Below, piece by piece: positions 37,994 to 61,185 of a DNA stretch of 64,000 nt (position 1 is the first letter of the stretch; each line of letters opens with the position of its first letter). The stretch lies in assembly GCA_963666985.2 (NCBI GenBank), contig CAXXIA010000002.1, positions 1,760,001-1,824,000 of the forward strand, given 5' to 3'. Under the pieces are notes generated by a model, which was not told the DNA's origin, searched no databases, and saw nothing but the letters and a program-made list of their open reading frames with translations. The position numbers were made by a program, and so were the translations under genes. The DNA comes from Spirochaetia bacterium (GTDB taxonomy: Bacteria; Spirochaetota; Spirochaetia; DSM-2461).

Positions 37994-38255
37994 AGCTGTT
38001 GATACGCTCCGGCCGCTAAATCTCTTTAGCGGCCTTCGGGCCGAGAAGATGGTGTAATTTTAGTGTTATGATATTTGCAAAGAGGAAATCAAATTGAAAC
38101 GGCTCGGCCAAATTTCGCTTTGGCTGCTTTTGTTGAGATGTTTTGGTTCGTAATCTGTGGTAATGTTAAAAGCGAGTGGTTGTTCTGGTAATTCCGTGGG
38201 GCAGCCAACCGGCTACGCCGGACGCGAAACTTCGTATACCAGCGGAACGTTAATT
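37987..38255 (+). repeat. attC: attC-like site 13 (type D with extra arm, 269 bp)
   Basis: Compensatory ATACG/CGTAT in place of ATGCG/CGCAT. Confidence 0.85.
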
Positions 38256-38274
38256 GAACTTCTGGAATTTGTCT

Positions 38275-39617
38275 TGAGCGACCAGGACATCCTTTACATT
38301 TTAGGTTCAGGACATCGTTTACACAAAACAAGCTTAAACGAAGCATTTGAATCCATCAACTGAAGGGAGAAAGGCATAGGTTTTCAAATCAATTTCTCCC
38401 AATCTGAGATTGTCAAACCATACGGTGAAGCTCTCATCCTCATTCTCCCGAAGTCCAACTTGGTATCCTGAAAAGACATAACTGACAAAGACTCTATGCC
38501 TGTCGATAGTAACGGCTCCCCGATTATTCACCATTCTCACCAGATACCCGGCCGGGTAGATCACCTGAGGGATTCGAGGAGGGAAAGGCCGATTGGACTT
38601 TGTGTAAATACTTCCGGGAGTCTGCATTTTGAGAGCTTCATGCGGACGAACACTGTTGAATTGATTTCTCCAAACATCAAAGTGTGCCTGATGTTCTGAG
38701 AGGTTCCCTTGAATCTGTCCCTGCAATTCGCGTTTGATATCGGCATGCATTCTTTCATGCCCTCCGTTTTCACAAGGCCTTCCTGGAGTGATGCGATCAA
38801 GTTCAATTCCCAAGGCCAGCCACCAAACACTTAAGCGGGTGAGTCCGAGTAATCCCTTCATGGAAGCAAAGGGTGGTCCGTTATCGGAGCGGATTACCCG
38901 AGGGATTCCATAGAGAGAAAAGAGCTTTTCGAACTCTGTTCTAACTTCTTGTGTGTCAGCCTTTTGGAGAGCTTTGATGGTGAAGATGTATTTGGAGTAT
39001 TCATCCCGAACCGTCAGAGGTTCACACTTTTCATTATCGGGAGTGTACCACCATCCTTTGAAGTCGACCGTCCAGATATCATTAGGGGCTTTGGCCTGCA
39101 GATGTGTTTGGATTCGGCTGCCTTTGGTCTGCTGCCGTTTCTTTCGATGATGAACCAGTCCTGCTTTATCAAGGATGCGTTTGACGGTGGTGAGGCTTGG
39201 GGGATTATTATGAGGATGGGTCTTCTGGTAGATCTCGAGAATCTTTTTTGGCCCCCAGCTGGAGTTGTGCAACGTCTTGATCCGGATAATACCGCATATA
39301 ACGTCTTCAGGCGTTTGGTTGGGGCTGCTGCGAGGTCTACGGGGTCGTTCCTTCAACCCGGCGAGCCCTTCCTGGATAAACCGGTTTTTCCATTTAAGGC
39401 CTGTCGGCCGGGAGATCCCGTACTCAGCACAGAGGTCTTTCATACAGACATGGGGATCCATGGCCTTGAGGGCGAACTCGAATTTGACGTCCATAATATT
39501 GGTCTCCTTCCACGGCATAACCAGCACCTCGATAAGGGAAAGTGCTGATCATTTTAGTTCTTGTCGTGTAAAGGATGTCCTGGTACTCTCGTGTAAACGA
39601 TGTCCTGAACCCGTACC
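38275..39617 (-). mobile_element. IS481-family element copy 1 (1343 bp)
   Basis: Ends each carry two CAGGACATC.TTTACA motifs in inverted orientation; flanking GTCT duplication. Confidence 0.9.
38334..39527 (-). CDS. IS481-family transposase
   Basis: MPWKE start, GISRPTGLKW HTH, WTVDFKG, RSDNGPPF, NGGHERMH. Confidence 0.9.
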   Translation of the reverse strand: MLVMPWKETNIMDVKFEFALKAMDPHVCMKDLCAEYGISRPTGLKWKNRFIQEGLAGLKERPRRPRSSPNQTPEDVICGIIRIKTLHNSSWGPKKILEIYQKTHPHNNPPSLTTVKRILDKAGLVHHRKKRQQTKGSRIQTHLQAKAPNDIWTVDFKGWWYTPDNEKCEPLTVRDEYSKYIFTIKALQKADTQEVRTEFEKLFSLYGIPRVIRSDNGPPFASMKGLLGLTRLSVWWLALGIELDRITPGRPCENGGHERMHADIKRELQGQIQGNLSEHQAHFDVWRNQFNSVRPHEALKMQTPGSIYTKSNRPFPPRIPQVIYPAGYLVRMVNNRGAVTIDRHRVFVSYVFSGYQVGLRENEDESFTVWFDNLRLGEIDLKTYAFLPSVDGFKCFV

Positions 39618-39659
39618 GTCTCTGCCTCGCCTTCCGTGGCTCGGCCTTGGAGATTTATA

Positions 39660-40769
39660 ATGAGTATAAAAGAAACAATTAAGGAACTGATAGCGACGAA
39701 GAGGGAAGGCGAGTATTGGGATTTTAAGAAAGAACCTCATTCAAACAACAGCGATCTTCTTCATGACATAATCTGTATGTCAAATGCATTAATCAAACAA
39801 GATAAATATATCATTGTTGGTGTTTCTGACCCTGCACAGGGTTGCATTATTGAAGGATTAAATTCAACAACAGCAAATCGAAAAACTCAAGCAAAAATCA
39901 TTGATTTCATTCAGCACTTAGATTTTGCCGGATCCATAAGGCCAGAGGTTGAAGTACATACGATCACGATAGATGGGAAAGATGTTGATGTAATCCGGAT
40001 ACTCGATAGACCAAACAAGCCATACTATCTTGCTAGTGATAAGGATGGAGTCAAAGCGAATTATATCTATACAAGAGTTGGTGATACGAATACTCCAAAG
40101 AACAAGTCTGCAGATATATATCACGTGGAGAAACTATGGAGGCAGAGGTTTTCATTAGACCAATCACCACTTGAAAGATATAACACGTTATTGAATCAGA
40201 AAGAGTCTTGGGTCATAGATATGGGCAATAAGGACTACGCATATCACCAACTGTTTCCAGAGTTCCGGATCGAGTTTTCAGAAACCCGGGAGGGATGGGA
40301 AACATACTCACATTACTATACAAATCCAAAATCGTTTTTTGGAGTTGCCTTTTTAAAATATTTTACAACAACACTATATGAAGTTCAGTACTGTTATGTA
40401 GATGAAATGCGATTGCCTCTTGTTGTACCAAAAATCGGTGTAATCAACTCTCAAAAAGGATATATATCATATTTCTACTTCCAAATGGATACAATCGAAT
40501 GGCGGCTAAATACTATCCTAGGATTGTCATTTCTGTATCAACGAGATCCTAGATATTTACCGTTCATTTTCTACAAAGATGAAGAAGAAAAAGACGCTTT
40601 TCATAGTCATGTAAAAAACATCGCAGAAGAACTCCTCACTAGAGAACCTGAGTCTTTTGAAATCGATAAACAGAAGCGAATCGAAGAAGACGGTAAGGGT
40701 TGTGGCATTACACCGCAAAATATTGGCCGACTAGTCCGTGAGCATATTTCATGGAAGTCATCACGATAG
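39660..40769 (+). CDS. AlbA_2 (Schlafen-like) domain protein (cassette 14)
   Basis: EGEYWDFK, DIICMSN, YIIVGVSD, YTRVGDTN. Confidence 0.82.
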   Translation: MSIKETIKELIATKREGEYWDFKKEPHSNNSDLLHDIICMSNALIKQDKYIIVGVSDPAQGCIIEGLNSTTANRKTQAKIIDFIQHLDFAGSIRPEVEVHTITIDGKDVDVIRILDRPNKPYYLASDKDGVKANYIYTRVGDTNTPKNKSADIYHVEKLWRQRFSLDQSPLERYNTLLNQKESWVIDMGNKDYAYHQLFPEFRIEFSETREGWETYSHYYTNPKSFFGVAFLKYFTTTLYEVQYCYVDEMRLPLVVPKIGVINSQKGYISYFYFQMDTIEWRLNTILGLSFLYQRDPRYLPFIFYKDEEEKDAFHSHVKNIAEELLTREPESFEIDKQKRIEEDGKGCGITPQNIGRLVREHISWKSSR

Positions 40770-40823
40770 AGCCAGAGAGTACATCCTTGTACTCTCTGAA
40801 GTCTATACATGGCTCAGAAGTTC

Positions 40824-41035
40824 AATTAACAGCTGTTGATGCGCTCCGGCTGCTAACTTCGTTATCAGCCTCCGGGGCTCCGCCCAAATTTCGCTTTGGC
40901 ATGGCATCTTGCAGATGCGTTTCTGGAAGTTGTGTGATAGGCTGAAGAGCGAACAGGCTTTCTGTTAAAAGCAAGAGCGCATGCCAACCGGCTACGCCGG
41001 ACACGAAACATTCGCATAACAGCGGAACGTTAAAT
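40824..41035 (+). repeat. attC: attC-like site 14 (type A)
   Basis: Conserved termini and arms. Confidence 0.85.
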
Positions 41036-41112
41036 GTCATTTAAGCTTTAAAGTCTTATCGAGTGAATAATTAGCAAAGTATTATAATTTTCTAGTTGTT
41101 TGAAATGCCTAC

Positions 41113-41141
41113 TTGAAATGCGTAACGTCACGGGTTACAAT
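41113..41141 (+). promoter_or_regulatory. Putative higBA promoter with palindromic operator
   Basis: TTGAAA-17 bp-TACAAT; inverted repeat GTAAC-N7-GTTAC 41122-41138. Confidence 0.65.
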
Positions 41142-41149
41142 CATTTTCA

Positions 41150-41428
41150 ATGATCAAGTCGTTCAAACATAAAGGCCTTCAAGAATTCTTCTATACAGGA
41201 ACGAAGAAAGGAATCCAACCTGATCATGCCAGCAAGATTGCAAGGCTCCTTGATCGTCTTGATGCATCAGTATCCGCAATGGATATGAATCTTCCAGGAT
41301 TCCGTCTTCATCAGCTTTCGGGGCAAGAGAAGGATACCTGGTCTGTTTGGGTAAATGGAAACTGGCGTATTACCTTTGAGTTTCGTGGTGAAGATGCATA
41401 CGTAGTCGATTACAGAGACTATCACTGA
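41150..41428 (+). CDS. higB: HigB toxin (cassette 15)
   Basis: MIKSFKHKGL, LHQLSG, WSVWVNGNWRITF. Confidence 0.92.
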   Translation: MIKSFKHKGLQEFFYTGTKKGIQPDHASKIARLLDRLDASVSAMDMNLPGFRLHQLSGQEKDTWSVWVNGNWRITFEFRGEDAYVVDYRDYH

Positions 41429-41437
41429 GGTATAAAG

Positions 41438-41752
41438 ATGGAGAAAAGAAGAAAACCGACGCATCCTGGCGTCATCATTAAAGAAGATGTTCTTAAGCCG
41501 TTGAATCTTACGATCACAGATGCGGCTAAAGATCTTGGAGTAACACGAAAGGCACTGTCAGAGCTGATAAATGAAAGATCCGCACTTAGTCCTGATATGG
41601 CCGTTCGAATAGCCCGTGCGACGAAAACCAGTCCCGAAAGCTGGATGAATATGCAGCAGAAATTAGATTTGTGGGAATCGGAGCATAAGAATTTTAATAT
41701 TGTTCCGTTTCCTCATGTCGGCCAATATCATTCAGAAATCTTGGAAGGCTAA
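41438..41752 (+). CDS. higA: HigA antitoxin (cassette 15)
   Basis: PTHPG, HTH, SPDMAVRI, WMNMQ. Confidence 0.92.
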   Translation: MEKRRKPTHPGVIIKEDVLKPLNLTITDAAKDLGVTRKALSELINERSALSPDMAVRIARATKTSPESWMNMQQKLDLWESEHKNFNIVPFPHVGQYHSEILEG

Positions 41753-41773
41753 TCTGGAAGCCGCTTGAACGAC

Positions 41774-41986
41774 ATTTAACAGCTGTTGATGCGCTCCGGC
41801 CGCTAAAAGTGTTTAGCGGCCTTCGGGGCTTCGCCCAAATTTCGCTTTGACCATGGTTCTTGCAGATGCGTTCCCGGAAGTTGTGTGATAGGCTCAAATG
41901 CGAACAGGCTTTCTGTTGAAGTGCAAGAACACATGCCAACCGGCTTCGCCGGACGCGAAACTTCGCATACCAGCAGCCCGTTTGAT
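41774..41986 (+). repeat. attC: attC-like site 15 (type A)
   Basis: Conserved termini and arms. Confidence 0.85.
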
Positions 41987-42222
41987 GACAGAATTAATTT
42001 AAGAAATAGTTTTTCTCATTTTCTTAAAAAAGAGAAGGCAATTCTCCTCATAAATATCAATTTAAATTCGTGAAAAGCTCTGAAAGTTTTTGAGAAAAAT
42101 CAAAGTGTTCCAGTTGTCGAGGTTGATTCTCCTGATATGAGTCTTGTTCAGTTGAATAAGAACAAGAGAGCCTTTTCACGGTGTTTGATCTTTATGGGCT
42201 TTGCTTAATTCCGTCATCAAAC
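41981..42222. other. Gene-less cassette 16 (duplicate of cassette 13)
   Basis: Near-identical to 37752-37993. Confidence 0.75.
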
Positions 42223-42485
42223 AGCTGTTGATACGCTCCGGCCGCTAAATCTCTTTAGCGGCCTTCGGGCCGAGAAGATGGTTATTAGTTGAGTGTTATG
42301 ATATTTGCAAAGAGGAAATGAGATTGAAGCGGCTCGGCCAAATTTCGCTTTGGCTGCTTTTGTTGAGATGTCTTGGTTCGTAATCTGTGGTAATGTTAAA
42401 AGCGAGCGGAGGTTCTGGTAATTCCGTGGGGCAGCCAACCGGCTCCGCCGGACGCGAAACTTCGTATACCAGCGGGCCGTTAAGC
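42216..42485 (+). repeat. attC: attC-like site 16 (type D with extra arm)
   Basis: Near-identical to site 13. Confidence 0.85.
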
Positions 42486-42509
42486 AATATTTTCCGGTAA
42501 GATAATAAA

Positions 42510-43316
42510 ATGAAAGAAATAATTGAATTCTATAATACATTTAATGAAAGTGGCCGAATCACCGAGGAACAAACACTCGAATACATTCGAACCAAAGAGA
42601 TAATCTCAAGATATCTGGATAATTTCAAAACAGTCTTGGATATAGGAGGTGCCGCCGGTGCATATTCCTTTTGGTTGGCGTCATTAGGTTTCAGTGTAAG
42701 CCTCATTGATATTGTACCCAAGCATATAGAACAAGCAAAAGAATACTCCGCACAGAGTGGTATCACTTTGTCCTCTGCCGAAGTCGGAAACGCTCTTGAA
42801 CTTCCTTATGCAGAAGATTCATATGATATTGTTTTACTGATGGGTCCTTTGTATCACTTGCAAAAAAGGGAAGATCGAATCACTGCGATAAGAGAGGCGA
42901 AACGCGTCCTTCGGCCCAATGGATATCTGTTTATAGCAGCAATAACGAGATTCGCTGGTATATATGATGGCTTTCTACGAGGAATGATCGAAGATGAAAA
43001 GTATTGCAATATCATTAATCGAGATCTCGAAGATGGAAAACATACCCCAGGGAACACAGAATATTTTACAACATCCTTCTTTCATAAACCTGAAGAACTA
43101 TTGAATGAAATTTCTGAAGTTGGTTTTGAACAAAAGAAAATAATTGCAGTAGAAGGTTTTGCTGGCCTTATGCCAAACATTGATGAAAAGCTAAAAGACC
43201 AACAATATCGGGAGAAATTACTAAGCTATCTAAAACGTTTAGAAGAAGAAGAAAGTTTGATGGGGGCATCGATTCATTTCCTTGCCGTATGTCGGGGTAA
43301 GGTAAATATCGCTTAA
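42510..43316 (+). CDS. Class I SAM-dependent methyltransferase (cassette 17)
   Basis: VLDIGGAAG, LLMGPLYHL, RVLRPNG; stop codon lies in the attC left core. Confidence 0.9.
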   Translation: MKEIIEFYNTFNESGRITEEQTLEYIRTKEIISRYLDNFKTVLDIGGAAGAYSFWLASLGFSVSLIDIVPKHIEQAKEYSAQSGITLSSAEVGNALELPYAEDSYDIVLLMGPLYHLQKREDRITAIREAKRVLRPNGYLFIAAITRFAGIYDGFLRGMIEDEKYCNIINRDLEDGKHTPGNTEYFTTSFFHKPEELLNEISEVGFEQKKIIAVEGFAGLMPNIDEKLKDQQYREKLLSYLKRLEEEESLMGASIHFLAVCRGKVNIA

Positions 43317-43521
43317 CAGCTGTTGATGCGCTCCGGCCGCTAAAGGTGTTTAGCGGCCTCCGGGGCTCCGCCCAAATTTCGCTTTGACATGGCTCTTGCA
43401 GATGCGTTCCTGAAAGTTGTGTGGTAGTCTGAAGAACGAACGGGCTTTCTGCTAAAAGCAAGAGCGCATGCCAACCGGCTTCGCCGGCCGCGAAACTTCG
43501 CATACCAGCGGGCCGTTAAAG
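43311..43521 (+). repeat. attC: attC-like site 17 (type A)
   Basis: Conserved termini and arms. Confidence 0.85.
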
Positions 43522-43905
43522 GAAATTGGCAAAAAATGCGATCAAGCCTCGCCCTCGTGGCTCGGCCAGAGGGCAAGAGAATCTAGTAGAAAGATACTGT
43601 CTCGGCTTTTTTGATAAAACAATCAAACCTTTTTGAGTGAATTTCTATATATTAAAAATGCAGATAAGGCAATCTAGTTTTTTTACTTACAAGGATTCAC
43701 TTAACATAAAGAAAATACAACCAATCAGAAAAACAAGACTCCCAATAGATCCTATATAATTATGGAGTCGAATATTATCAATTAAAAAAGTAAGGCTTCC
43801 TACAGAAAATAGAATCCAACCAATTGACTCCAGTTTCTTCTTGTTTTTCAACTAACACCTCGAGTATTCGCTTCAGTAGATTTCACAAATTAATAGAGGG
43901 CTCGG

Positions 43906-44834: not shown

Positions 44835-44869
44835 GAATAGCCGAAATAATTAAAAGAGGTTGAACAATA

Positions 44870-46684
44870 ATGAATACACAAATTAATAAAATTATTAAAG
44901 AATACCTCAATCGTTCAGATGTAGATTTTGCCCTATTGATCAATGGAACATGGGGATGCGGAAAAACATATTATGTAAATAACGAAATGAGGTCATTGAT
45001 AGAAAAATCAAATAAACAAATCATTTACACATCACTAAATGGATATAGCGATTTTAACAGGTTGAAGCGTAGAATAACCTTTCAATTGCTTTACCGAAAT
45101 AAATCGGTTGATCAAGATTTAATAGATGGTCTTTTTGAAATTGGAGATAATATCCCACGGATAGGTTCTGCATTCAAAATTCTAAAAACAGCAAAAGACC
45201 TTATTGAATCAAAGAAAATTGAATCAGTAGACATTTCAGAGACTGTATTTGTTTTTGATGACTTAGAAAGAATCTCTGAAAGGGCTAACACGAAAGATTT
45301 CATCGGTCAAATTTATGAAAATTATACAAAAAAGGGCGGCAAGACCATTTTTGTGGCTGATGAAAAAAATATACGGGATGAGGATTATCATAGAATTAAA
45401 GAGAAAACAATACGAACAACAATTCAGTACACGCCTGATCACGAAAAACAATTAGCAAACTTTTTAGCACATTTTAGAGCAAAAAATAAGAATGTAAATA
45501 TTACTGAAATGCAGGGGACATTTATTGAATTGTTGAAGAAACTTGAAATTCGAAATATACGAACCGTTTCCTTTGTTCTGGATAATTTCCAAACCTGCAT
45601 TTCCGTTTTAAACAAAGAACAAACCGATAAGTATGGTAAATTCATATTTGAGAATATTGGAATTTTAACATCGGAAGTAACACTTGGAGAACTGACCACT
45701 AAAAACCTTGTTGATAAGAAGGAACTTGATAGAATAACGTCCAACCCGTTCTTTTGGGATTTACACAATAAAAAGGAAGAAGAAAAAACCTATGTTGAAA
45801 ATTTCTATGAACACTATAATCAGAGTCTCGGACTTCAGTATATATTTTTTGAATCTCTGTTTGACTATATTCTTACCGGTTACTTTGACCAAGAAAAATT
45901 TGTAAAAGAGTTGGAATACACATTTGAATCAAGTAAAAAACCAGAGGAAGAAGCGGCAATAGATTTTCTTGGAAACTTTAGAGAACTTGAGCATGATCAG
46001 CTTAAATATGGCCTTGAGAATCTTGTGAAATTTCTAGAAGAGGGTGTCTATCATTTATCAAAACTACCTCACCTTTACACTATGCTTTGCTTTTTCAAAG
46101 AACGTGAATACTTAGTTGGTTGGAAATGGAACATTGAAGACATAATTAATCGTGCTTTTCAAAAATCAGAACAGGATACAAAAAAAATACCAGCTGAGAT
46201 TGATCTTGAGATGGGGTTTCATGTTTTTGACGAAAGGCAAAAGAATAATGATTTCTATAAAGAATTGATTAAAAGAATAAGGGATAAATCGGAAGAGAAG
46301 AAATTCGATAATCGGAAAGAAAAAGTGAATATTATTTTTGATAAAGCTAAAAAAAATGAAAGATTCATTGACGACCTGAGAGAGTATGAACATTCAAAGC
46401 TTTTCGGCGATATTGTTGAGACGGGAGCGACTACTAGATTTTTTGACTTAAGTAACAAAGGAATACATGATTTTGAAGCTTATCTCTATAGTGAAATACT
46501 GCAGATCAGTAATGCTGGGCAATATGGATCTAGTCAGAAAGAGCCGCTTCAGGAGATTGTAAGAACATTATCAGAGGGAATATCAAACAGTAAATACGAC
46601 TCAATGCGAGTAAAGCGATTTGAGGAATTAATTGATTATATGAGTAGGGCTATTGCTCATCTTGAGAAAACTAAATCCGGTTGA
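44870..46684 (+). CDS. KAP-family P-loop NTPase (cassette 19)
   Basis: INGTWGCGKT; VFDDLER. Confidence 0.85.
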   Translation: MNTQINKIIKEYLNRSDVDFALLINGTWGCGKTYYVNNEMRSLIEKSNKQIIYTSLNGYSDFNRLKRRITFQLLYRNKSVDQDLIDGLFEIGDNIPRIGSAFKILKTAKDLIESKKIESVDISETVFVFDDLERISERANTKDFIGQIYENYTKKGGKTIFVADEKNIRDEDYHRIKEKTIRTTIQYTPDHEKQLANFLAHFRAKNKNVNITEMQGTFIELLKKLEIRNIRTVSFVLDNFQTCISVLNKEQTDKYGKFIFENIGILTSEVTLGELTTKNLVDKKELDRITSNPFFWDLHNKKEEEKTYVENFYEHYNQSLGLQYIFFESLFDYILTGYFDQEKFVKELEYTFESSKKPEEEAAIDFLGNFRELEHDQLKYGLENLVKFLEEGVYHLSKLPHLYTMLCFFKEREYLVGWKWNIEDIINRAFQKSEQDTKKIPAEIDLEMGFHVFDERQKNNDFYKELIKRIRDKSEEKKFDNRKEKVNIIFDKAKKNERFIDDLREYEHSKLFGDIVETGATTRFFDLSNKGIHDFEAYLYSEILQISNAGQYGSSQKEPLQEIVRTLSEGISNSKYDSMRVKRFEELIDYMSRAIAHLEKTKSG

Positions 46685-50655: not shown

Positions 50656-50868
50656 GTTAAACAGCTGTTGATGCGCTCCGGCGTCAACTGGCGTTGCCGC
50701 CTCCGGGGCTTCGCCCAAATTTCGCTTTGGCTATGGCTCTTGCAGATGCAGCCTCAAAAGTGTTGTGATACCATCAAAGGCGAGCAAGGCATTGCTGTAA
50801 AAGTGCAAGAGCGCATGCCAACCGGCTTCGCCGGGCGCGAAACTTCGCATAACAGCAGAACGTTAAAT
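50656..50868 (+). repeat. attC: attC-like site 22 (type A)
   Basis: Conserved termini and arms. Confidence 0.85.
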
Positions 50869-51963
50869 GAAATAAAAAGGCAAAACTGAGCGACCAGGAC
50901 ATCCTTTACATTTTAGGTTCAGGACATCGTTTACACAAAACAAGCTTAAACGAAGCATTTGAATCCATCAACTGAAGGGAGAAAGGCATAGGTTTTCAAA
51001 TCAATTTCTCCCAATCTGAGATTGTCAAACCATACGGTGAAGCTCTCATCCTCATTCTCCCGAAGTCCAACTTGGTATCCTGAAAAGACATAACTGACAA
51101 AGACTCTATGCCTGTCGATAGTAACGGCTCCCCGATTATTCACCATTCTCACCAGATACCCGGCCGGGTAGATCACCTGAGGGATTCGAGGAGGGAAAGG
51201 CCGATTGGACTTTGTGTAAATACTTCCGGGAGTCTGCATTTTGAGAGCTTCATGCGGACGAACACTGTTGAATTGATTTCTCCAAACATCAAAGTGTGCC
51301 TGATGTTCTGAGAGGTTCCCTTGAATCTGTCCCTGCAATTCGCGTTTGATATCGGCATGCATTCTTTCATGCCCTCCGTTTTCACAAGGCCTTCCTGGAG
51401 TGATGCGATCAAGTTCAATTCCCAAGGCCAGCCACCAAACACTTAAGCGGGTGAGTCCGAGTAATCCCTTCATGGAAGCAAAGGGTGGTCCGTTATCGGA
51501 GCGGATTACCCGAGGGATTCCATAGAGAGAAAAGAGCTTTTCGAACTCTGTTCTAACTTCTTGTGTGTCAGCCTTTTGGAGAGCTTTGATGGTGAAGATG
51601 TATTTGGAGTATTCATCCCGAACCGTCAGAGGTTCACACTTTTCATTATCGGGAGTGTACCACCATCCTTTGAAGTCGACCGTCCAGATATCATTAGGGG
51701 CTTTGGCCTGCAGATGTGTTTGGATTCGGCTGCCTTTGGTCTGCTGCCGTTTCTTTCGATGATGAACCAGTCCTGCTTTATCAAGGATGCGTTTGACGGT
51801 GGTGAGGCTTGGGGGATTATTATGAGGATGGGTCTTCTGGTGTCAGCACCGGTGATAAATTTCCTGAAAACACCGGAATAAGATTTCCGGTTTTGAGCCA
51901 ATAAAAACGGGCGAGTATCCCTAAGATGGAGTAACCATACACCCATCGAAAAGGACACTGCCC

Positions 51964-53217
51964 GTGAAGCTCCAGGAGAAACGCATGCACCAGGCTCAAG
52001 TGCTGGCCAAGGAAGGGTACAAGCAGTACCGAATCGCCGAAATACTCGGCGTTACCGACCGAACGGTTCGAAATTACCTCAGCGGACACAGTCCCAAAAT
52101 GAGCCCCAGGAAGAAACGGAAGAGCAAGCTCGACCACTTCAAATCCCATATTCGCAGTGTACTTGAGGAGGAACCGCTCTTCAATTGCGAGGTGCTTTAT
52201 AAGAATCTTTGCGCCATGGGTTACACCGGAGGAATCACCATCCTCCGTGATTTCGCCAAAGAGACCCGAGATGAGATTCAGAGAGAAGTAGTTCGCCGCT
52301 TCGAAACCCAGGCCGGCTACCAGGCACAGATGGACTGGAAGATATTGCCGAAGGAACACTGGCGAGGCGTCTACGCCTTCGTCATGGTCCTCGGCTACAG
52401 CCGGACTCCCTATGTGAGATTCACCACCGATATGACCAGCGGCACACTGCTGGCCTGCCACCAGAAAGCCTTTGAGTATTTTGGCGGTGTTCCTCAGACT
52501 GTATTGTACGACAACATGAAAACAGCATGGGTCCACGACGGAGAAGAGTGGAAGACCAACTCCCGGTTACTGGAGTTCGCTTCCTCCTACGGTTTCTCTC
52601 CAAGACGATGCGCCGTCAGGCGTCCCCAGACCAAAGGAAAAGTAGAGAGGTTCATCGACTACCTTTCGGGTAACTTCCTTTCTCAGGCACGGCGTAGTGG
52701 CCTGAAGACGATCGAAGAACTCAATGACGCCATTCTGCCCTGGCTGACTGAAGTTCAGCAGAAAGAGCTCCGGGACTACCAGGAAAGTCGTGCCCAGCGA
52801 TATGAGGTGGAGAAATCCTTCCTGCAACCGGCACCGCCAGAGGGAGCTTTTGACTACCGTGACAGCATTCAGCTCATTGTCAGTCGAGAAGGCTCAGTCA
52901 CCTACAAGACTAACAAGTACAGCGTGCCGCCTGTATTGGTTGGTAAGAAGCTGACGCTGAAAATCGATGCGCTTTCCATGCAGGGGGAAATCCTCAATGG
53001 GAAGGTTTCCATACGGCTATTCAATCTCCTTCCAGCTGGCTCCCGGCAGAAGGATATCCGCAATGAAGATCGGGAAGCACTCTTTACCCTGTGGGAGAAG
53101 CAGCGTAAGAAGTCGGCGAAAAAACCAGTCCGGAAGCAACAAGATGAGCAGACCATCGTCGATATCAGAAATCCTGCCTACTATGAGCGCTTTGTCGCTG
53201 TGGGAGTCTCGGTATGA
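51964..53217 (+). CDS. istA: IS21 transposase IstA
   Basis: RFET.AG.QAQMDW, LYDNMK, QTKGKVER. Confidence 0.93.
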   Translation: MKLQEKRMHQAQVLAKEGYKQYRIAEILGVTDRTVRNYLSGHSPKMSPRKKRKSKLDHFKSHIRSVLEEEPLFNCEVLYKNLCAMGYTGGITILRDFAKETRDEIQREVVRRFETQAGYQAQMDWKILPKEHWRGVYAFVMVLGYSRTPYVRFTTDMTSGTLLACHQKAFEYFGGVPQTVLYDNMKTAWVHDGEEWKTNSRLLEFASSYGFSPRRCAVRRPQTKGKVERFIDYLSGNFLSQARRSGLKTIEELNDAILPWLTEVQQKELRDYQESRAQRYEVEKSFLQPAPPEGAFDYRDSIQLIVSREGSVTYKTNKYSVPPVLVGKKLTLKIDALSMQGEILNGKVSIRLFNLLPAGSRQKDIRNEDREALFTLWEKQRKKSAKKPVRKQQDEQTIVDIRNPAYYERFVAVGVSV

Positions 53218-53978
53218 ATATCAAACTTGAGACCGTCACCGAGAGAATGAATTCGCTGGGTATGAGTTTCATGTCCGCAGGACTGGAATCCTTCCTGGCA
53301 GAACCCCGCCGGCAGGAACAGACGGTACTGGATATCGTTGCCGACTTGATGGAACTTGAATACATCCCCCGTAAAGAACGGAGCGCCAAGAGCCGCTTGA
53401 AGCTTTCAGGAATGCCGGCAGTGAAAAGGCTGGAAGACTTCGACAGGGGGTGGCTCAAAGGTGGTATCACCAACCGCCAGTTTGACGAGCTCTCCTCTCT
53501 GGCCTTCATCGAGCGAAAGGAGAACGTCATTCTCATGGGTCCCAGCGGCCTGGGAAAATCTCATCTGATGCTGGCCCTGGGGCACAAGGCCTGCATGGAG
53601 GGATTCACCACCTACCATACCACCTGCATCGACCTCATTGAGAACCTGGTTCTTGCCCGAGAGAACAACCGGCTCAAGCGTCGGCTGGTATGGCTCCGAA
53701 AACCGCACCTGCTTCTCATCGATGAAGTCGGTTACGAGAAGCTGACACCCGAACAGGCTAATCTTTTCTTCCAGGTTGTGAATGCCCGGTATGAACAGGG
53801 GAGTATGATCATTACGACGAACAAGCCATTTGGCAGATGGGCGGAGATAATGAGTGATGAGGCTGTTGCCAGTGCAACCCTGGACCGTCTGCTTCACCAT
53901 GCTCATATCCTGAGTCTTCAAGGAGACTCGTACCGAATGAAGGATCGGTTGAAAGCGGGAGTCGTTGACTTCCTTTGA
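53214..53978 (+). CDS. istB: IS21 helper ATPase IstB
   Basis: GPSGLGKS, LLIDEVGY, LDRLLHH, GDSYR. Confidence 0.95.
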   Translation: MNIKLETVTERMNSLGMSFMSAGLESFLAEPRRQEQTVLDIVADLMELEYIPRKERSAKSRLKLSGMPAVKRLEDFDRGWLKGGITNRQFDELSSLAFIERKENVILMGPSGLGKSHLMLALGHKACMEGFTTYHTTCIDLIENLVLARENNRLKRRLVWLRKPHLLLIDEVGYEKLTPEQANLFFQVVNARYEQGSMIITTNKPFGRWAEIMSDEAVASATLDRLLHHAHILSLQGDSYRMKDRLKAGVVDFL

Positions 53979-54447
53979 CGCCCAAAACCGGAAAAACTAA
54001 ATCGGTGAAATCCGGAAATGTTTCGTCGGTGTTGACATCTGGTAGATCTCGAGAATCTTTTTTGGCCCCCAGCTGGAGTTGTGCAACGTCTTGATCCGGA
54101 TAATACCGCATATAACGTCTTCAGGCGTTTGGTTGGGGCTGCTGCGAGGTCTACGGGGTCGTTCCTTCAACCCGGCGAGCCCTTCCTGGATAAACCGGTT
54201 TTTCCATTTAAGGCCTGTCGGCCGGGAGATCCCGTACTCAGCACAGAGGTCTTTCATACAGACATGGGGATCCATGGCCTTGAGGGCGAACTCGAATTTG
54301 ACGTCCATAATATTGGTCTCCTTCCACGGCATAACCAGCACCTCGATAAGGGAAAGTGCTGATCATTTTAGTTCTTGTCGTGTAAAGGATGTCCTGGTAC
54401 TCTCGTGTAAACGATGTCCTGAACCCGTACCAAACAGGAATGAAGAA

Positions 54448-54975: not shown

Positions 54976-55517
54976 GTGAAGAAATGCATTTGTCAATAAT
55001 TGCCGATGGAGCTATTGCTTCAACACAAATTGGTGATGGACGACTTATTCCAGTGCTAATTCTAGAGTGCAATGAAGGAAATAACTTTAAAAGGCTAGTT
55101 GAAATTCAAGAATCGACGAAAACAGGTGATGCAATTGTACGATGGGGATATCAATTACATAGTAAAAGGTATGTACGACTAAATGTATCTTTCTCAAAGC
55201 CAATGGAAATCGAGATCAATATAACTTTTGATCTTAGAAAATACGCTATGGTTGTTGATGGTATTCAAATTGTCAAATCAGTTTATTTACAGCCAGGACA
55301 AATGGGAGATCGTGTATCTTCAACGATGGATCACCCAAAGATTGTCATTGAAATACCCGAAAAAACAAGACTTGCAAATTGGGACTTAATTGTTCTTAGC
55401 AATATAAAAAGGAGGTTAAGAAAGAAAATTAGTTCAAGAAAGTCTCTAAAGAAGGCAGCTCGCGATCATTTGGAAAAGGGACGCGAAGTCTTTTTGAAAA
55501 GAATGGCGGTTGAATAG
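54972..55517 (+). CDS. Hypothetical protein (cassette 23)
   Basis: 181-aa ORF coupled by ATGA overlap. Confidence 0.72.
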   Translation: MSEEMHLSIIADGAIASTQIGDGRLIPVLILECNEGNNFKRLVEIQESTKTGDAIVRWGYQLHSKRYVRLNVSFSKPMEIEINITFDLRKYAMVVDGIQIVKSVYLQPGQMGDRVSSTMDHPKIVIEIPEKTRLANWDLIVLSNIKRRLRKKISSRKSLKKAARDHLEKGREVFLKRMAVE

Positions 55518-55525
55518 TTTATTTC

Positions 55526-55733
55526 ATTTAACAGCTGTTGATGCGCTCCGGCGATAATCAGGGATTATCGCCTCCGGGCCTTCGGCCAAATTTGCCTCTG
55601 TCATAGATTTTGCGTAAGGCTGCTGTTGTGGTAAGATGAGTTGTAGTTTGCGGTTGAGGTTGTGAAGAATCGCAAAATCTCCGCCAGTCGCTTGAGCGAA
55701 CGGCAAACTTCGCATACCAGCGGGCCGTTTGGC
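55526..55733 (+). repeat. attC: attC-like site 23 (type B)
   Basis: Conserved termini; first hairpin GGCGATAATC/GATTATCGCC. Confidence 0.85.
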
Positions 55734-55799
55734 GAACTTGCTCAAAAGAAAAATATTTTCATATTGAAAGGTAGTACTTATGTATAGTACTATAATTTT

Positions 55800-56057
55800 G
55801 TGACGAGTAAGAACCGAAAGACACTCGAGGCCATTTTCCAACGACCAACATCATCGAATATCAAATGGAAGGACATCGAGACCCTTTTTCTTTCTCTCGG
55901 TGGGGAAATCTCCGAAGGCTCGGGTTCTCGCGTACGAGTAAAACTCAATGGAGAAAGAGCTGTCTTTCATCGGCCTCATCCTCAGCCAACGACGGATAAA
56001 GGGGCGGTTGAGTCTGTAAAAAGATTTTTGAAGAACGCAGGAGTCAAAGATGCTTGA
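55800..56057 (+). CDS. hicA: HicA toxin (cassette 24)
   Basis: WKDIETLF, EGSGSRV, HRPHP. Confidence 0.92.
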   Translation: MTSKNRKTLEAIFQRPTSSNIKWKDIETLFLSLGGEISEGSGSRVRVKLNGERAVFHRPHPQPTTDKGAVESVKRFLKNAGVKDA

Positions 56058-56385
56058 GTATAAAGGTTATATAGGAACAGTCACATTGGATTCAGACGCT
56101 CATATCTTTCATGGCGATGTCATTAATACTCGAGATGTTATTACCTTTCAAGGTCGGTCAATCGATGAATTGGAGCAGGCTTTTCATGGTTCGATCGATG
56201 ACTATCTGGAATGGTGCAAGGAAGATGGTTTGGAACCGGAAAAACCATACTCTGGTCGATTCAATTTACGTATTTCTCCTGAACTTCACAGAGAGGTGGC
56301 CATTCAAGCCAAAAAGGAAAAAATGTCAATTAACAGCTTCGTGGAAAAAGCTGTTAAGGACGAATTGTCTCTGAGTCACTCATAA
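56050..56385 (+). CDS. hicB: HicB antitoxin (cassette 24)
   Basis: YKGYIG, ITFQG, PEKPYSGRFNLR. Confidence 0.92.
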   Translation: MLEYKGYIGTVTLDSDAHIFHGDVINTRDVITFQGRSIDELEQAFHGSIDDYLEWCKEDGLEPEKPYSGRFNLRISPELHREVAIQAKKEKMSINSFVEKAVKDELSLSHS

Positions 56386-56386
56386 G

Positions 56387-56803
56387 ATGTTTAATCTGAC
56401 ACAGAAAGCAGCAAAACATTTCAAAGAAGTATATTCATCACTAGAAGGGCGATCAGGAAATTTCTGGCGTTTGGATACTGTATATATTAATCACAGAAAA
56501 ATATTAATGTGTGTACATGAACCGACTTTGTTTACTCATTTATTTTATGGAACCGAATATAAAACGTATGAACCAATAGTCAGAAAATTAAAGGATTATC
56601 ATCCTTGGTTTATGGATGGGTTCAGTGTTGGAAAGGGACTGAATAGAAGAGTTGGTGGTTCAATGACGGATATGAAAATTTCAATGAAATACTATTCAGA
56701 AAAAACACTTAAAGAACTCGAGGAAGAAATTAATCAAACGCCTTATTCATATCTTGAACATGGAGTTCCAGAATCTGAGCTTCAGGAATTTGTATTAAGA
56801 TAA
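56387..56803 (+). CDS. Hypothetical protein (cassette 24)
   Basis: 138-aa ORF directly after hicB, ending before the attC. Confidence 0.7.
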   Translation: MFNLTQKAAKHFKEVYSSLEGRSGNFWRLDTVYINHRKILMCVHEPTLFTHLFYGTEYKTYEPIVRKLKDYHPWFMDGFSVGKGLNRRVGGSMTDMKISMKYYSEKTLKELEEEINQTPYSYLEHGVPESELQEFVLR

Positions 56804-56814
56804 AAAGCAAGTTC

Positions 56815-57022
56815 GCCAAACAGCTGTTGATGCGCTCCGGCCGCTAAAAGTGTTTAGCGGCCTCCGGGGCTACGCCCAAATTTGCCTCTGTCATAGATTT
56901 TGCGTATGTCTGACGTTGTGGTAAGATGAGTTGCAGTTAGCGGTTAAGGTTGTGAAGAATCGCAAAATCTCCGCCAGTCGCTTTGCGAACGGCAAACTTC
57001 GCATACCAGCGGACCGTTTAAT
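56815..57022 (+). repeat. attC: attC-like site 24 (type B)
   Basis: Conserved termini and arms. Confidence 0.85.
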
Positions 57023-57088
57023 GAATATTCGATGTATTTATGAATGTTCTAAGGTGCAATATTAGTAGCAATTTCAGGAGCTAACTCT

Positions 57089-58309
57089 ATGACGAGTTTT
57101 ATAATATCCAACGCCGCGGACCCTTCTGAATCCTCTATAGAAATTTCCAAAGAGAGATATCTCGAGTACACAGATGAGTCGAGATTTGCTTCGCTTTTTT
57201 CTCTATCCGACGAGGCAATTGAATCCATAAAGAGTTGGCCATGTCTTATTACTACTGAGGGTCGTAGTTCTGAAATCATAAGATTGGTAAAAATCACATC
57301 GATCCTCGAAACCAATTCGGCGTTTCAAGTAGCTTTTCAAGTATTGCCATTAAAAAAACCACTTACTAACGGATTGGTATGGAAAGAAAGGCACCGTCTT
57401 GGTCTCGAAGAGTTCGAATTCAACCGGTATCATTGGACAATAAAAACAAGCAATATTTTCGAAGTGCTTCTCGATGAGAGCTTTGTTGGATCATCACAAA
57501 TAGAAGCGTTTCCAGAAATGGAAGTTCCTTCCCCAATACGATCAGATCTGATAGCCGCTAAGAATATTATTTCTGAATGGAGTCATACAGAAATAGATGA
57601 CTTCCTCTTAGAGGCCGGAGTTGTCGGTTTGAATGCAGATCGTTCCATCGGAAGTAGACATGATCGCGTAAACACTATTCTTCGATCAGTATTAAAAAAG
57701 CCATGGTTAAAAACAGCTGAGAACCGATTGTTTTCTAGCTTTATGATTGAAAAGGCGGGTGCTGGAGTAACAGATCAAAATCCAGAAGCGAATGACGAAC
57801 AACGGGTGCCTGACGAACCCGTAAAGGAATTGGGGCTAGATTTTCCGATATCGTCAGAAACACCAACAGCAGTTTCGACTCGAGTATTTGTTGTTCATGG
57901 GCGTAATGATGTCATTAGAAATCAAATAGTTACTTTCTTATCAGAAATAGGGCTAGATCCAATCGTTTTACACGAGCAGGCAAATATGGGCCGCCATTTG
58001 CTTACGAAGTTCATAGATGAAGCCGATTTAGCCTCTTTTGCCGTGGTCATAATGACAAACGATGATGAAGGTGGTCTTTTAGATGAAGGAAAGAAGCCAC
58101 GGGCACGTCAAAATGTAATATTTGAATTGGGATACTTCATCGCACACTTGGGCCAGAGGAAAGTCTGTGCGTTAATATCTCCAGGCCTTGAGACTCCTTC
58201 GGATTTCGATGGCATTGTATATGTTCCTATAGATGAGCAAGAAGATTGGAAAAAAACACTTCATCGTGAATTAGCTGCAGTAGGTATTCCCGTAAAGGTT
58301 CCTAAGTGA
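57089..58309 (+). CDS. Protein with C-terminal Cap12/Pycsar-type TIR domain (cassette 25)
   Basis: VFVVHGR, LHEQAN, RARQNVIFELGYF, PSDFDG. Confidence 0.85.
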   Translation: MTSFIISNAADPSESSIEISKERYLEYTDESRFASLFSLSDEAIESIKSWPCLITTEGRSSEIIRLVKITSILETNSAFQVAFQVLPLKKPLTNGLVWKERHRLGLEEFEFNRYHWTIKTSNIFEVLLDESFVGSSQIEAFPEMEVPSPIRSDLIAAKNIISEWSHTEIDDFLLEAGVVGLNADRSIGSRHDRVNTILRSVLKKPWLKTAENRLFSSFMIEKAGAGVTDQNPEANDEQRVPDEPVKELGLDFPISSETPTAVSTRVFVVHGRNDVIRNQIVTFLSEIGLDPIVLHEQANMGRHLLTKFIDEADLASFAVVIMTNDDEGGLLDEGKKPRARQNVIFELGYFIAHLGQRKVCALISPGLETPSDFDGIVYVPIDEQEDWKKTLHRELAAVGIPVKVPK

Positions 58310-58333
58310 TTATTTATAGCAATCTGAATATTC

Positions 58334-58548
58334 ATTAAACAGCTGTTGATGCGCTCCGAATACATTTGCATGCAAATGTATTCTCCGGGGCTTCGCCCAA
58401 ATTTCGCTTTGGCGATGGTTCTTGCAGATGCGTTCCTAGAAGTTGTGTGATAGGCTCAAATGCGAACAGGTTTTCCGTTGAAGTGCAAGAACGCATGCCA
58501 ACCGGCTACGCCGGCCGCGAAACTTCGCATACCAGCGGAACGTTATGT
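58334..58548 (+). repeat. attC: attC-like site 25 (type A)
   Basis: Conserved termini; first hairpin as in site 3. Confidence 0.85.
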
Positions 58549-58598
58549 GCTTTTTCGTTTTTCCAGTTAATAACATTAATTGCCATAAGGAGGGAGAA

Positions 58599-59051
58599 AT
58601 GGGCATCAATTATCAATTAAAAGCAGAAAAAGGCAAAATCGAAGATGAATTAAATTCCGCAATTAACAGGCTTATTTCTGGCTGCGAAAAGCTTGATATG
58701 GCTTTAGCCTTCGAAATCTTCTCAGATTCATCTGAGTTCTTGATGATGGGAACGGATGGAAGCCTTTGTGATTATCAGACTTACTTGAAAAACAATATCG
58801 ACTATTTATCCGGTTGTGAAAGTTTTAAGTTGATAACGTTTGATCGAAAAATACGAATCATAAACAGTGAGGTAGCTATCTTCTCATGGGCTTATGGGGT
58901 TGAGGCAAAATTAAGAACGGGAGATATTGATATTATTGATAATGCAGGAGCTTCTTTTGTCTTCCGAAAAATAGAGAATACATGGAAGGTTGTATATTAT
59001 CATGAGTCATCAGTACCTCCGAAAAGAAACTCTCCACCAAGAGAATCATGA
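58599..59051 (+). CDS. NTF2/SnoaL-like protein (cassette 26, duplicate of cassette 7)
   Basis: Protein identical to 25299-25751. Confidence 0.8.
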   Translation: MGINYQLKAEKGKIEDELNSAINRLISGCEKLDMALAFEIFSDSSEFLMMGTDGSLCDYQTYLKNNIDYLSGCESFKLITFDRKIRIINSEVAIFSWAYGVEAKLRTGDIDIIDNAGASFVFRKIENTWKVVYYHESSVPPKRNSPPRES

Positions 59052-59145
59052 CGATTGAAATCCAAGTGTAAATAAGGGATTACACAGAACGTCTCGCAAG
59101 TATCGCTTTCTGTTGCTGTTTATAGTGATGTCGGAATCAGAATAT

Positions 59146-59550
59146 ATGGAAAATGAAATAGTAATAGATAAAAAATCCAGCCGGGCGATTTGGGCTCTAT
59201 AGTGGAATTGCATGGCAACTATTACAGCAAGCATTTTGGCTATAACATAACCTTTGAACCATATGTTGCTTTACCTCTTGCTAAGAAGAAAGCAAAAACT
59301 GCGCAGTTGAGATGGTTTATCCTTGATGGAAGTCTCCAAGGAAAAGGCATTGGAAATCAACTAATGAGATTTTCTATTGATTTTGCAAGAGAAAAAGGAT
59401 TTTACAAGCTGATTCTCTGGACGGTAAGGGATCTAAAAAGTGCGATTCATCTGTACGAAAAGAATCTTTTTTTTGCTTAAGAAAGAAGTTTCCCACAAGA
59501 TTTGGGGGGTGGAATTGACGGAACAACACTATGAATTGAAGTTGAAATAG
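59146..59550 (+). pseudogene. GNAT pseudogene (cassette 26)
   Basis: Versus 25846-26334: -1 in an A run, 84-bp deletion, +1 in a T run. Confidence 0.85.
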
Positions 59551-59616
59551 GGTTAATTCCGAATACTCTGTTTAAGAAGATGAACTCTCAATAAAGACAA
59601 ATATGAGGGAAAAAGC

Positions 59617-59824
59617 ACATAACAGCTGTTGATGCGCTCCGGCCGCTAAAAGTGTTTAGCGGCCTCCGGGGCTTCGCCCAAATTTGCCTCTGTCATAGAT
59701 TTTGCGTAAGTCTGTCTCTGTGGTATTATAAGTTGCAGTTAGCGATTGAGATTGTAAAATTTCGCAAAATCTCCGCCAGTCGCTACGCGAACGGCAAACT
59801 TCGCATAACAGCGGGCCGTTTGAT
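59617..59824 (+). repeat. attC: attC-like site 26 (type B)
   Basis: Conserved termini and arms. Confidence 0.85.
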
Positions 59825-59842
59825 GAACTTTTCGCTTTGAAG

Positions 59843-61185
59843 TGAGCGACCAGGACATCCTTTACATTTTAGGTTCAGGACATCGTTTACACAAAACAAG
59901 CTTAAACGAAGCATTTGAATCCATCAACTGAAGGGAGAAAGGCATAGGTTTTCAAATCAATTTCTCCCAATCTGAGATTGTCAAACCATACGGTGAAGCT
60001 CTCATCCTCATTCTCCCGAAGTCCAACTTGGTATCCTGAAAAGACATAACTGACAAAGACTCTATGCCTGTCGATAGTAACGGCTCCCCGATTATTCACC
60101 ATTCTCACCAGATACCCGGCCGGGTAGATCACCTGAGGGATTCGAGGAGGGAAAGGCCGATTGGACTTTGTGTAAATACTTCCGGGAGTCTGCATTTTGA
60201 GAGCTTCATGCGGACGAACACTGTTGAATTGATTTCTCCAAACATCAAAGTGTGCCTGATGTTCTGAGAGGTTCCCTTGAATCTGTCCCTGCAATTCGCG
60301 TTTGATATCGGCATGCATTCTTTCATGCCCTCCGTTTTCACAAGGCCTTCCTGGAGTGATGCGATCAAGTTCAATTCCCAAGGCCAGCCACCAAACACTT
60401 AAGCGGGTGAGTCCGAGTAATCCCTTCATGGAAGCAAAGGGTGGTCCGTTATCGGAGCGGATTACCCGAGGGATTCCATAGAGAGAAAAGAGCTTTTCGA
60501 ACTCTGTTCTAACTTCTTGTGTGTCAGCCTTTTGGAGAGCTTTGATGGTGAAGATGTATTTGGAGTATTCATCCCGAACCGTCAGAGGTTCACACTTTTC
60601 ATTATCGGGAGTGTACCACCATCCTTTGAAGTCGACCGTCCAGATATCATTAGGGGCTTTGGCCTGCAGATGTGTTTGGATTCGGCTGCCTTTGGTCTGC
60701 TGCCGTTTCTTTCGATGATGAACCAGTCCTGCTTTATCAAGGATGCGTTTGACGGTGGTGAGGCTTGGGGGATTATTATGAGGATGGGTCTTCTGGTAGA
60801 TCTCGAGAATCTTTTTTGGCCCCCAGCTGGAGTTGTGCAACGTCTTGATCCGGATAATACCGCATATAACGTCTTCAGGCGTTTGGTTGGGGCTGCTGCG
60901 AGGTCTACGGGGTCGTTCCTTCAACCCGGCGAGCCCTTCCTGGATAAACCGGTTTTTCCATTTAAGGCCTGTCGGCCGGGAGATCCCGTACTCAGCACAG
61001 AGGTCTTTCATACAGACATGGGGATCCATGGCCTTGAGGGCGAACTCGAATTTGACGTCCATAATATTGGTCTCCTTCCACGGCATAACCAGCACCTCGA
61101 TAAGGGAAAGTGCTGATCATTTTAGTTCTTGTCGTGTAAAGGATGTCCTGGTACTCTCGTGTAAACGATGTCCTGAACCCGTACC
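59843..61185 (-). mobile_element. IS481-family element copy 3 (1343 bp)
   Basis: Same ends as copies 1 and 2; AAG(T) duplication. Confidence 0.9.
59902..61095 (-). CDS. IS481-family transposase
   Basis: Protein identical to 38334-39527. Confidence 0.9.
   Translation of the reverse strand: MLVMPWKETNIMDVKFEFALKAMDPHVCMKDLCAEYGISRPTGLKWKNRFIQEGLAGLKERPRRPRSSPNQTPEDVICGIIRIKTLHNSSWGPKKILEIYQKTHPHNNPPSLTTVKRILDKAGLVHHRKKRQQTKGSRIQTHLQAKAPNDIWTVDFKGWWYTPDNEKCEPLTVRDEYSKYIFTIKALQKADTQEVRTEFEKLFSLYGIPRVIRSDNGPPFASMKGLLGLTRLSVWWLALGIELDRITPGRPCENGGHERMHADIKRELQGQIQGNLSEHQAHFDVWRNQFNSVRPHEALKMQTPGSIYTKSNRPFPPRIPQVIYPAGYLVRMVNNRGAVTIDRHRVFVSYVFSGYQVGLRENEDESFTVWFDNLRLGEIDLKTYAFLPSVDGFKCFV

Follow-up and report, generated by a model that had tools for sequence, protein, structure and literature searches.

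An insertion sequence (IS) of 1343 bp encoding a DDE transposase of the IS481 type is present in three copies in a cassette array within a 64,000-nucleotide stretch of the genome of a Spirochaetia bacterium (assembly GCA_963666985.2, contig CAXXIA010000002.1, positions 1,760,001 to 1,824,000), which is called the window below. This element and a clade of relatives insert in a set orientation and at a set distance beside attC, the recombination site of the cassettes. The targeting is real and general, and apparently it has not been described. In the explanation that we regard as probable, a lone IS481-like DDE transposase directly reads the duplex sequence across the attC crossover and inserts at a ruler distance from it.

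Position of the copies and the motif at their targets

In the window, the three copies start 26, 25, and 25 bp past the crossover G of the preceding attC (38249/38275, 50862/50887, and 59818/59843) and are flanked by the duplications GTCT, AAAC, and AAG, as the original prediction had reported from the sequence. Copies 1 and 3 are indeed contiguous 1343-bp elements, while copy 2 spans 50887-54431, being split by a nested IS21 element of 2197 bp. The original prediction also held that no cargo open reading frame (ORF) is broken: this is borne out by copies 1 and 2, since the downstream ORFs are open and start 18 and 16 bp past the IS, while no plus-strand start lies near copy 3, where the cassette ORFs are on the minus strand. 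An IS-free relative of the cassette of copy 3 is present at C2:1911589 (C1 and C2 denote contigs of this genome, L-numbers the loci of relatives, and G-numbers their genomes).

The genome (4.86 Mb in three contigs) carries 13 copies in all: isoform A accounts for nine (99.9-100% identical to one another) and isoform B for three (85% identical to A in DNA and 88-89% in protein), and the last is a 131-bp end fragment. Target duplications of 3-5 bp were found in 10 of the 12 copies with both ends, including 7 of the 9 complete copies in the array. Mapping all the copies did not reveal variable distances: seven of the ten lying outside the window are also located 25-27 bp after a G. The ten array copies all share one orientation and stand 25 bp (six copies), 26 bp (three), or 27 bp (one) from the G. 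As the array comprises 87 attC-like 3' ends along about 158 kb (the window holds 27 of these ends), the chance of a single random array insertion falling at +25 to +27 in the right orientation is 8e-4. The leaders occupied by the ten copies are all different, and both isoforms place themselves alike. The array also holds ten copies belonging to three other IS types, whose distance from the preceding G is 180-1680 bp, two of these copies being nested in the present element. The pattern ..AAC|GTT was observed in 9 of the 10 targeted attC vs. 28 of the 77 others (p 0.0016), a weak result, since it is one of many position tests, and this preference is not common to the off-array sites.

The crossover used as the distance reference is real, since the first cassette (18054-19422) is repeated at C2:1913135-1914503 with 100% identity over 1369 bp, the repeat being bounded at G|TT, behind attI and behind an internal attC. 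The first cassette is a recent duplication into attI, and the exchange of cassettes at G|TT is that expected of integron attC sites. The ten targeted attC are 156-271 bp long, with a lopsided unpaired central spacer and complementary R''/R' boxes, and all of them fold into a bottom-strand hairpin (z -2.7 to -8.9).

The three remaining copies, at C2:3078803, C2:730735, and C1:1274631, are located outside the array. A search with the attC profile near these copies gave no match, and their sites form no hairpin (z +1.9, -0.3, and -0.5 vs. the values of the ten targeted attC). When they were scored against a position weight matrix (PWM) of the attC 3' end, the best match among 105 distances fell at 26, 25, and 25 bp. 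Of the 19 positions that 90% or more of the attC share, the sites match 9, 11, and 13, scores reached by 9.3%, 0.85%, and 0.04% of the genome positions when three registers are allowed (Fisher combination about 4e-5). All three have C-9, G-7, C-6, G-4, C-1, G0, and G+7, and none has GTT (GTA, GGT, and GAG occur instead). Over the 13 insertion sites, six of these bases are invariant, while G-7 is present in 12. Since these copies have their best attC 3' match at the usual distance without any hairpin, folding is not required, so that the structure-guided targeting put forward in the original prediction is contradicted as a general necessity. The long end of the copy at C1:1274631-1275998 carries a third 25-bp repeat; this copy lies where an open frame of the minus strand begins, and the frame resembles a lipoprotein signal, a label assigned by eye. 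The main features are listed in the following table.

Table. Location of the element, its targets, and the array features in the window.
Feature	Position	Strand	Remarks
Inferred target motif straddling the crossover, -12 to +11	38237..38260	+	Positions common to 13 insertion sites
attC-like site, 269 bp	37987..38255	+	Crossover G 38249; bottom-strand fold z -2.7
attC-like site, 213 bp	50656..50868	+	Crossover G 50862; fold z -4.4
attC-like site, 208 bp	59617..59824	+	Crossover G 59818; fold z -3.9
IS copy 1, 1343 bp	38275..39617	-	Target duplication GTCT at 38271..38274, repeated 39618-39621
Short (attC-proximal) end of copy 1	38275..38323	+	5'-TGA tip; two 16-bp repeats (positions 9, 34; spacing 25 bp) follow after 8 bp
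Long (attC-distal) end of copy 1	39567..39617	-	5'-GGT tip; these two repeats (positions 11, 36) follow after 10 bp
Transposase gene, copy 1	38334..39518	-	394 aa from ATG; HTH (helix-turn-helix) domains, DDE core, C-terminal beta-barrel
IS copy 2, interrupted	50887..54431	-	Target duplication AAAC
IS21-family element nested in copy 2, 2197 bp	51841..54037	+	istA 51964-53217, istB 53214-53978; TCTGG duplication
IS copy 3, 1343 bp	59843..61185	-	100% identical to copy 1; target duplication AAG
Tyrosine recombinase, array head	17133..17966	-	277 aa, short, integron-integrase-like; Pfam Phage_integrase and Phage_int_SAM_4
attI-type crossover G|TT of the first cassette	18054..18060	+	Repeat of the cassette begins exactly at G

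Relatives of the element and their targets

The relatives analyzed comprise 76 genome loci and the best 80 of 557 metagenome loci; the element ends were located by their repeat motif, and loci with short, missing, or N-containing flanks were excluded from the flank counts. The attC-targeting clade is wide and mostly consists of spirochaetes. In 43 of the 49 unique in-clade flanks, an R' box lies 26-29 nt past the repeat motif, which places it about 18-21 bp from the tip. Of the six flanks that depart from this, five are long ends mis-sorted by the sorting rule, and the sixth is L127, where the distance is 26 bp as in the element of this genome. Elsewhere, the box occurs at 26-29 nt in 0/17 flanks outside the clade, 10/25 at loci not on the tree, and 2/87 long ends. 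Close copies are attC-adjacent in 16 cases out of 17 in five whole genomes, and Leptospira-type copies lie 19-20 bp after attC in 29 of 30 unique flanks, the last being a one-base variant at 20. An independent test based on the complementary left box (R''/stem) was passed by 8 of the 15 sites with enough flank, vs. 1.5 in shuffles. The pattern C.GCG..AC|GTT....G recurs at a site 26 bp away from the closest full-length relative, L127 (62%). Since kin are not independent, these counts express conservation rather than separate origins.

In a tree of 68 proteins (59 of 113 plus nine paralogues; quick IQ-TREE, with SH-aLRT support values only), the 38 attC-labelled rows fall on one side of a branch with a support of 99, and the two isoforms of this genome form with L127 the sister group (99) of the remaining attC clade (98). 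The attC labels first given by a regular expression to L149, L168, L172, and L104 proved to be chance calls and were replaced using a narrower window with controls; L104 and L172 were left unlabelled on the tree as probable chance calls. At the readable ends of the homologues from G012, G022, G016, G020, G035, and G059 (35-47%), which lie outside the clade, no attC pattern was found. A family search around G061 added no new genome (1/20). At L031-L036 (G012), the 47%-identical transposase is broken near residue 372 by an insert of about 160-200 bp with inverted ends, resembling a miniature inverted-repeat transposable element.

The orientation of the gene is not a rule of the clade. The transposase is always on the minus strand in this genome, as originally predicted, and points toward attC, as it does in L127 and in L082 and L174 (where the distance is 19 bp), whereas most relatives carry the gene reversed, pointing away from attC. 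In every attC-adjacent case read, whichever the direction of the gene, it is the short tip (about 8-9 bp) that faces attC; the long ends of the clade mostly start with GGT. A comparison of the ends suggests that the interior of the element can invert between the repeats, the tip setting the orientation.

Two further branches do not group with the attC clade on the tree. One is a more distant Leptospira IS481-like branch (about 40% identity) with 47 unique flanks: in 21 of them a dif-like site stands 27-28 nt from the 3' end, in 6 only the half-site does, and by our count 15 abut another copy and 5 show nothing. The label dif rests on likeness to the sites tabulated in PMC10132070. The dif-like pattern occurs once on each of the three contigs of G546 (3/3) and twice in G538, in line with a dif site; it was not found in the present genome, where 0 of the 13 copies adjoin such a site. 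The copies of this branch occupy the XerD-like side of the site, are stacked in tandem, and hit half-sites when the copies are abundant (L234, L237, L240, L287, L290-L293, L329-L357). In the other branch, 7-bp periodic repeats lie beside the short/3' end in 17 of 26 flanks vs. 2 of 20 at the other end, the loci being chosen by eye (L074, L081, L084, L086, L088-L090, L095, L103, L108, L109, L112, L114, L119, L144, L175, L177); these relatives carry Verrucomicrobia, Deltaproteobacteria, and Acidobacteria labels or come from unlabelled metagenome contigs. We know of no recombinase that binds 7-bp tandem repeats. Since these two branches lie outside the attC clade, targeting at a fixed distance seems to be a general feature of the group that can be redirected to other sites.

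The transposase and the mechanism of targeting

The catalytic residues D152, D212, and E255 were assigned by motif. A single-sequence structure prediction was unusable (predicted local distance difference test, pLDDT, 34), and an alignment-based model was therefore used (95 sequences, pLDDT 92, predicted template modelling score, pTM, 0.71), in which HTH domains and an RNase H core are accompanied by a terminal beta-barrel, no domain being predicted beyond it. IstA, TnsB, MuA, and retroviral integrases have folds similar to the predicted one, and in MuA and TnsB the equivalent barrel touches the target DNA. When 82 clade proteins are compared with 31 others, 18 positions are conserved at 80% or more in the former and at 30% or less in the latter, among them N331, R333, R342, and F349 in the barrel; N331 and R333 reach 100% in the 82 clade sequences vs. 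26% and 13% in the 31 others, although clade-specific conserved columns of this kind can arise from shared ancestry alone.

In the mechanism that we favor, the transposase would read a short and degenerate double-stranded sequence straddling the attC crossover and would insert at a ruler-like distance from it. We propose an asymmetric transpososome, in which the C-terminal beta-barrel, with its clade-invariant N331 and R333, may touch the target DNA away from the active site. The element would enter the cassette leader, leaving attC and usually the ORF intact, and would move with the cassette. In favor of direct reading are the uniform placement in the array, the matches and the lack of hairpins at the off-array sites, the site of L127, the half-site insertions of the dif-associated branch, the small amount of non-coding DNA, the lack of an encoded partner, the barrel as the last domain, and the conservation of N331 and R333. 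The specific, oriented targeting by an IS481-type DDE transposase that had been predicted is supported both in this genome and across the clade.

Several points weigh against direct reading. Only three off-array sites are available, and the weakest of them is not significant alone (p 0.09). The seven-base core occurs 1679 times in the genome, 79 of them at attC, yet 10 of the 13 insertions are at attC. As the core is common and the insertions are mostly at attC, the preference must be added by a fuller match, by selection against coding hits, or by a bound protein or structure; the core looks necessary and is not sufficient. The attC-side motif also varies between subclades, the logo retaining mainly G+7 and A+10 beyond the CGTT anchor imposed by the filter, and the distance shifts by 6 bp between subclades. 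Lastly, two branches prefer sites of tyrosine recombinases (attC and dif), which is a hint of tethering by a protein.

The most serious rival, which we consider rather unlikely, is that a protein bound at the R-box half-site (the array integrase, XerC/XerD, or another host protein) tethers the transposase, which inserts just past the footprint of that protein. A tethering-type model has been proposed for ISAjo2 and ISAba32 at dif, and the cassette-side consensus of the main clade, GTTRTGYGMAAT, resembles the reverse complement of the XerC arms given in PMC10132070. The dif-associated branch, with one such pattern per replicon in G546 and two in G538, and an attraction to the array far above what the shared core predicts, also speak for tethering. 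On the other hand, the three off-array sites have neither GTT nor a partner half-site, the R' arms vary among the ten targeted attC, the predicted transposase lacks any domain past the barrel, and a third group of relatives is inserted beside 7-bp repeats, which no recombinase is known to us to bind. The missing GTT core also weighs against the integrase guidance suggested in the original prediction, although it does not refute it.

Recognition of a folded attC, as a single-stranded hairpin or a cruciform, followed by insertion into the adjacent duplex, is improbable. The ten targeted attC do fold, the left-box test in the relatives exceeded its expectation, and folding could account for the excess of array insertions. 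The off-array copies keep their distance without a hairpin, however, the +7 contact lies at or past the edge of the paired R box, and the dif sites and heptamer repeats of the related branches are not attC-like hairpins. It is very hard to credit that there is no targeting at all, random or AT-biased insertion being followed by selection for leaders or by the spread of one insertion with duplicated cassettes: leaders are harmless places and two genomes have several copies in one leader, but here ten different leaders are occupied, most of the complete array copies have their own duplications, diverged isoforms behave alike, and other IS types lie at scattered distances; since many leaders are 40-140 bp long, selection alone gives neither a 3-bp window nor a single orientation. 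Equally remote is guidance by an element-encoded RNA, known from the IS1111 members ISKpn4 and ISPst6, which target attC via a seekRNA derived from their non-coding region (PMC11187229). The present enzyme is DDE, not DEDD, a search of the element against Rfam gave no match, and the 59 + 99 bp of non-coding DNA, consisting mostly of terminal repeats, leave little room for a guide; nor does the element encode any ATPase or TniQ partner.

Insertions of the IS481 family give a short target duplication, and those of the present element are 3-5 bp long. The IS481 profile NF033577 is the best NCBIfam model, with 203.1 bits and thus below its cutoff of 224 (196-222 bits in three relatives), Pfam LZ_Tnp_IS481 scores 28.3 against a cutoff of 22.2, and plasmid proteins annotated IS481 are about 40% identical. 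The ends of IS481 elements start with 5'-TGT (bioRxiv 10.1101/2022.12.17.520857), whereas the tips here are 5'-TGA and 5'-GGT. The predicted IS481 assignment is borderline. IS1202 transposases have about 400-500 aa, with an extra C-terminal domain in the dif-targeting subgroup. For the present element, the IS1202/ISNCY profile NF033594 gave only 33.8 bits against a cutoff of 250, the model has no extra C-terminal domain, and the insertions lie 25-27 bp from an attC crossover rather than beside dif. The rve/DDE fold, the short non-coding DNA, and the insertion outside attC separate the element from IS1111-attC. It is IS481-like without being a clean member, and belongs neither to IS1202 nor to IS1111-attC.

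Tn7 also inserts in one orientation at a set distance from a recognized site, attTn7. It shares the TnsB-like fold predicted here and differs in requiring TnsA/B/C/D (PMC10132070), whereas the present element encodes one protein. The IS1202 members ISAjo2 and ISAba32 (PMC10132070; bioRxiv 10.1101/2022.12.17.520857) resemble it in their single TnsB-like DDE transposase, in the extra transposase-binding repeat inside each end, and in their oriented, fixed-distance insertion beside a tyrosine-recombinase site with tandem stacking (PMC10132070). They are about 1.5 kb long, encode 441-457 aa, have TGT ends and 5-bp duplications (5-6 bp for the IS1202 family), and insert 5 bp from the XerC arm of dif/pdif, and TnpAjo2 has an extra C-terminal helical domain (PMC10132070); the present element has 1343 bp, 394 aa, TGA/GGT tips, duplications of 3-5 bp, attC leaders as targets, and, in the structural model, no extra domain. 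The IS1111-attC elements (ISPst6, ISKpn4, ISPa21) are likewise a monophyletic IS subset on attC in arrays with a fixed orientation (PMC3001079, PMC11187229), but they are DEDD, RNA-guided, and inserted within attC near its 5' end, while the present DDE element inserts beyond the 3' end, at a distance of 25-27 bp, without disrupting attC. Group IIC-attC introns also occupy attC-adjacent positions in arrays in one orientation (PMC3001079); they are retroelements entering the attC bottom strand by unrelated chemistry, and the outward promoter shown in them was not found here. Searches of the full-text literature gave no entry whose title or abstract beginning presents an IS481-type element next to attC or dif; subscription journals, ISfinder, and a preprint supplementary table lay outside this scope and could name members.

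The cassette array and the fate of the inserted copies

The 277-aa recombinase at the head of the array scores above the cutoff of NF040815 and reaches 220 bits against a cutoff of 265 with TIGR02249, the match being split into two stretches, and the IntI-specific insertion is apparently absent. Since it lies under the IntI cutoff and matches that model in two pieces, the system is called integron-like. Its closest 21 homologues have 60-100% identity and 233-312 aa. The attC-like sites of the window are about 210-270 bp long from 19200 on, with a lopsided central spacer; solo partial matches free of IS occur off the array at C2:876579-876720, 2130248-2130397, and 2674162-2674261. A cassette of about 500 bp, whose leader is conserved and for which no long ORF is listed, recurs in the window (37553-38253 and 41778-42483), its leaders being located at C2:1797751, 1801980, 1832174, 1833905, 1896547, 1905294, 1905794, and 1914501. 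Two IS3-type elements lie in one cassette region (26780-28020 and 28280-29600), one of them with an ALIL pseudoknot (28614-28730). Pfam assigned defence-type cargo (DUF3644 plus a nuclease-like domain, Mrr-nSTAND3, Schlafen AlbA_2, KAP NTPase, and CAP12/Pycsar TIR) to the regions 20531-21760, 35084-37372, 39636-40769, 44870-46684, and 57089-58309.

In the relatives, the target duplication is often lacking: none was found in 36 of 48 main-clade sites with both ends, and in 21 of 29 Leptospira-type sites. Among the fetched loci, IS-free homologous cassettes matching five distal flanks put the junction 16-17 bp after the G, as expected, while a sixth match has no GTT upstream. In G546 and G538, three copies each lie in one common leader with different upstream and downstream genes, one of them with mismatched attC halves, and a search for the IS-free form of one G538 cassette found none. 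In this genome, the copy at C2:1933553 links, at the expected position, a leader to a cassette body of a different type. These sequences point to recombination or gene conversion between copies, in which a short leader is caught between two repeats. Similar chimeric products would also arise from targeted intramolecular transposition. Later exchanges between same-oriented copies would swap leaders and bodies and remove the duplications.

A scan for outward promoters gave 3 sites vs. 1.7 +/- 1.2 expected, none of them at an element end, and one noted by eye at the long end (8/12 match) was dropped because it fell under the scan threshold. No circle junction was found in the contigs, although contigs cannot show its absence. 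A close copy (30 differences) in sequencing run X3, whose contig stops 23 nt upstream with letters that fit a cassette leader, is suggestive only.

A broader reading is conceivable, although we are inclined to doubt it as a whole: this IS481-like branch might consist of natural one-protein, ruler-type integrases, in which the beta-barrel has been retargeted in each clade, to attC R boxes (18-21 or 25-27 bp), to the XerD arm of dif (27-28 nt), or to 7-bp repeats, and unequal tips set the orientation, while the evenly placed array copies would form a second, integrase-independent system of cassette shuffling.

The element adds a third, unrelated class of attC parasites. The other two enter the site, whereas this one inserts next to it and can therefore ride on cassettes. 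The natural off-target sites and the sister clades with other targets and spacings make it possible to test whether DNA or a bound recombinase is recognized, a question raised by the IS1202 papers. An enzyme of 394 aa able to insert at a fixed distance and in one orientation, with no need for TnsC, TniQ, or RNA, would provide a compact scaffold for targeted integration. Judging from the leader/body chimeras, such elements probably reshape chromosomal cassette arrays, which are here rich in defence-type genes.

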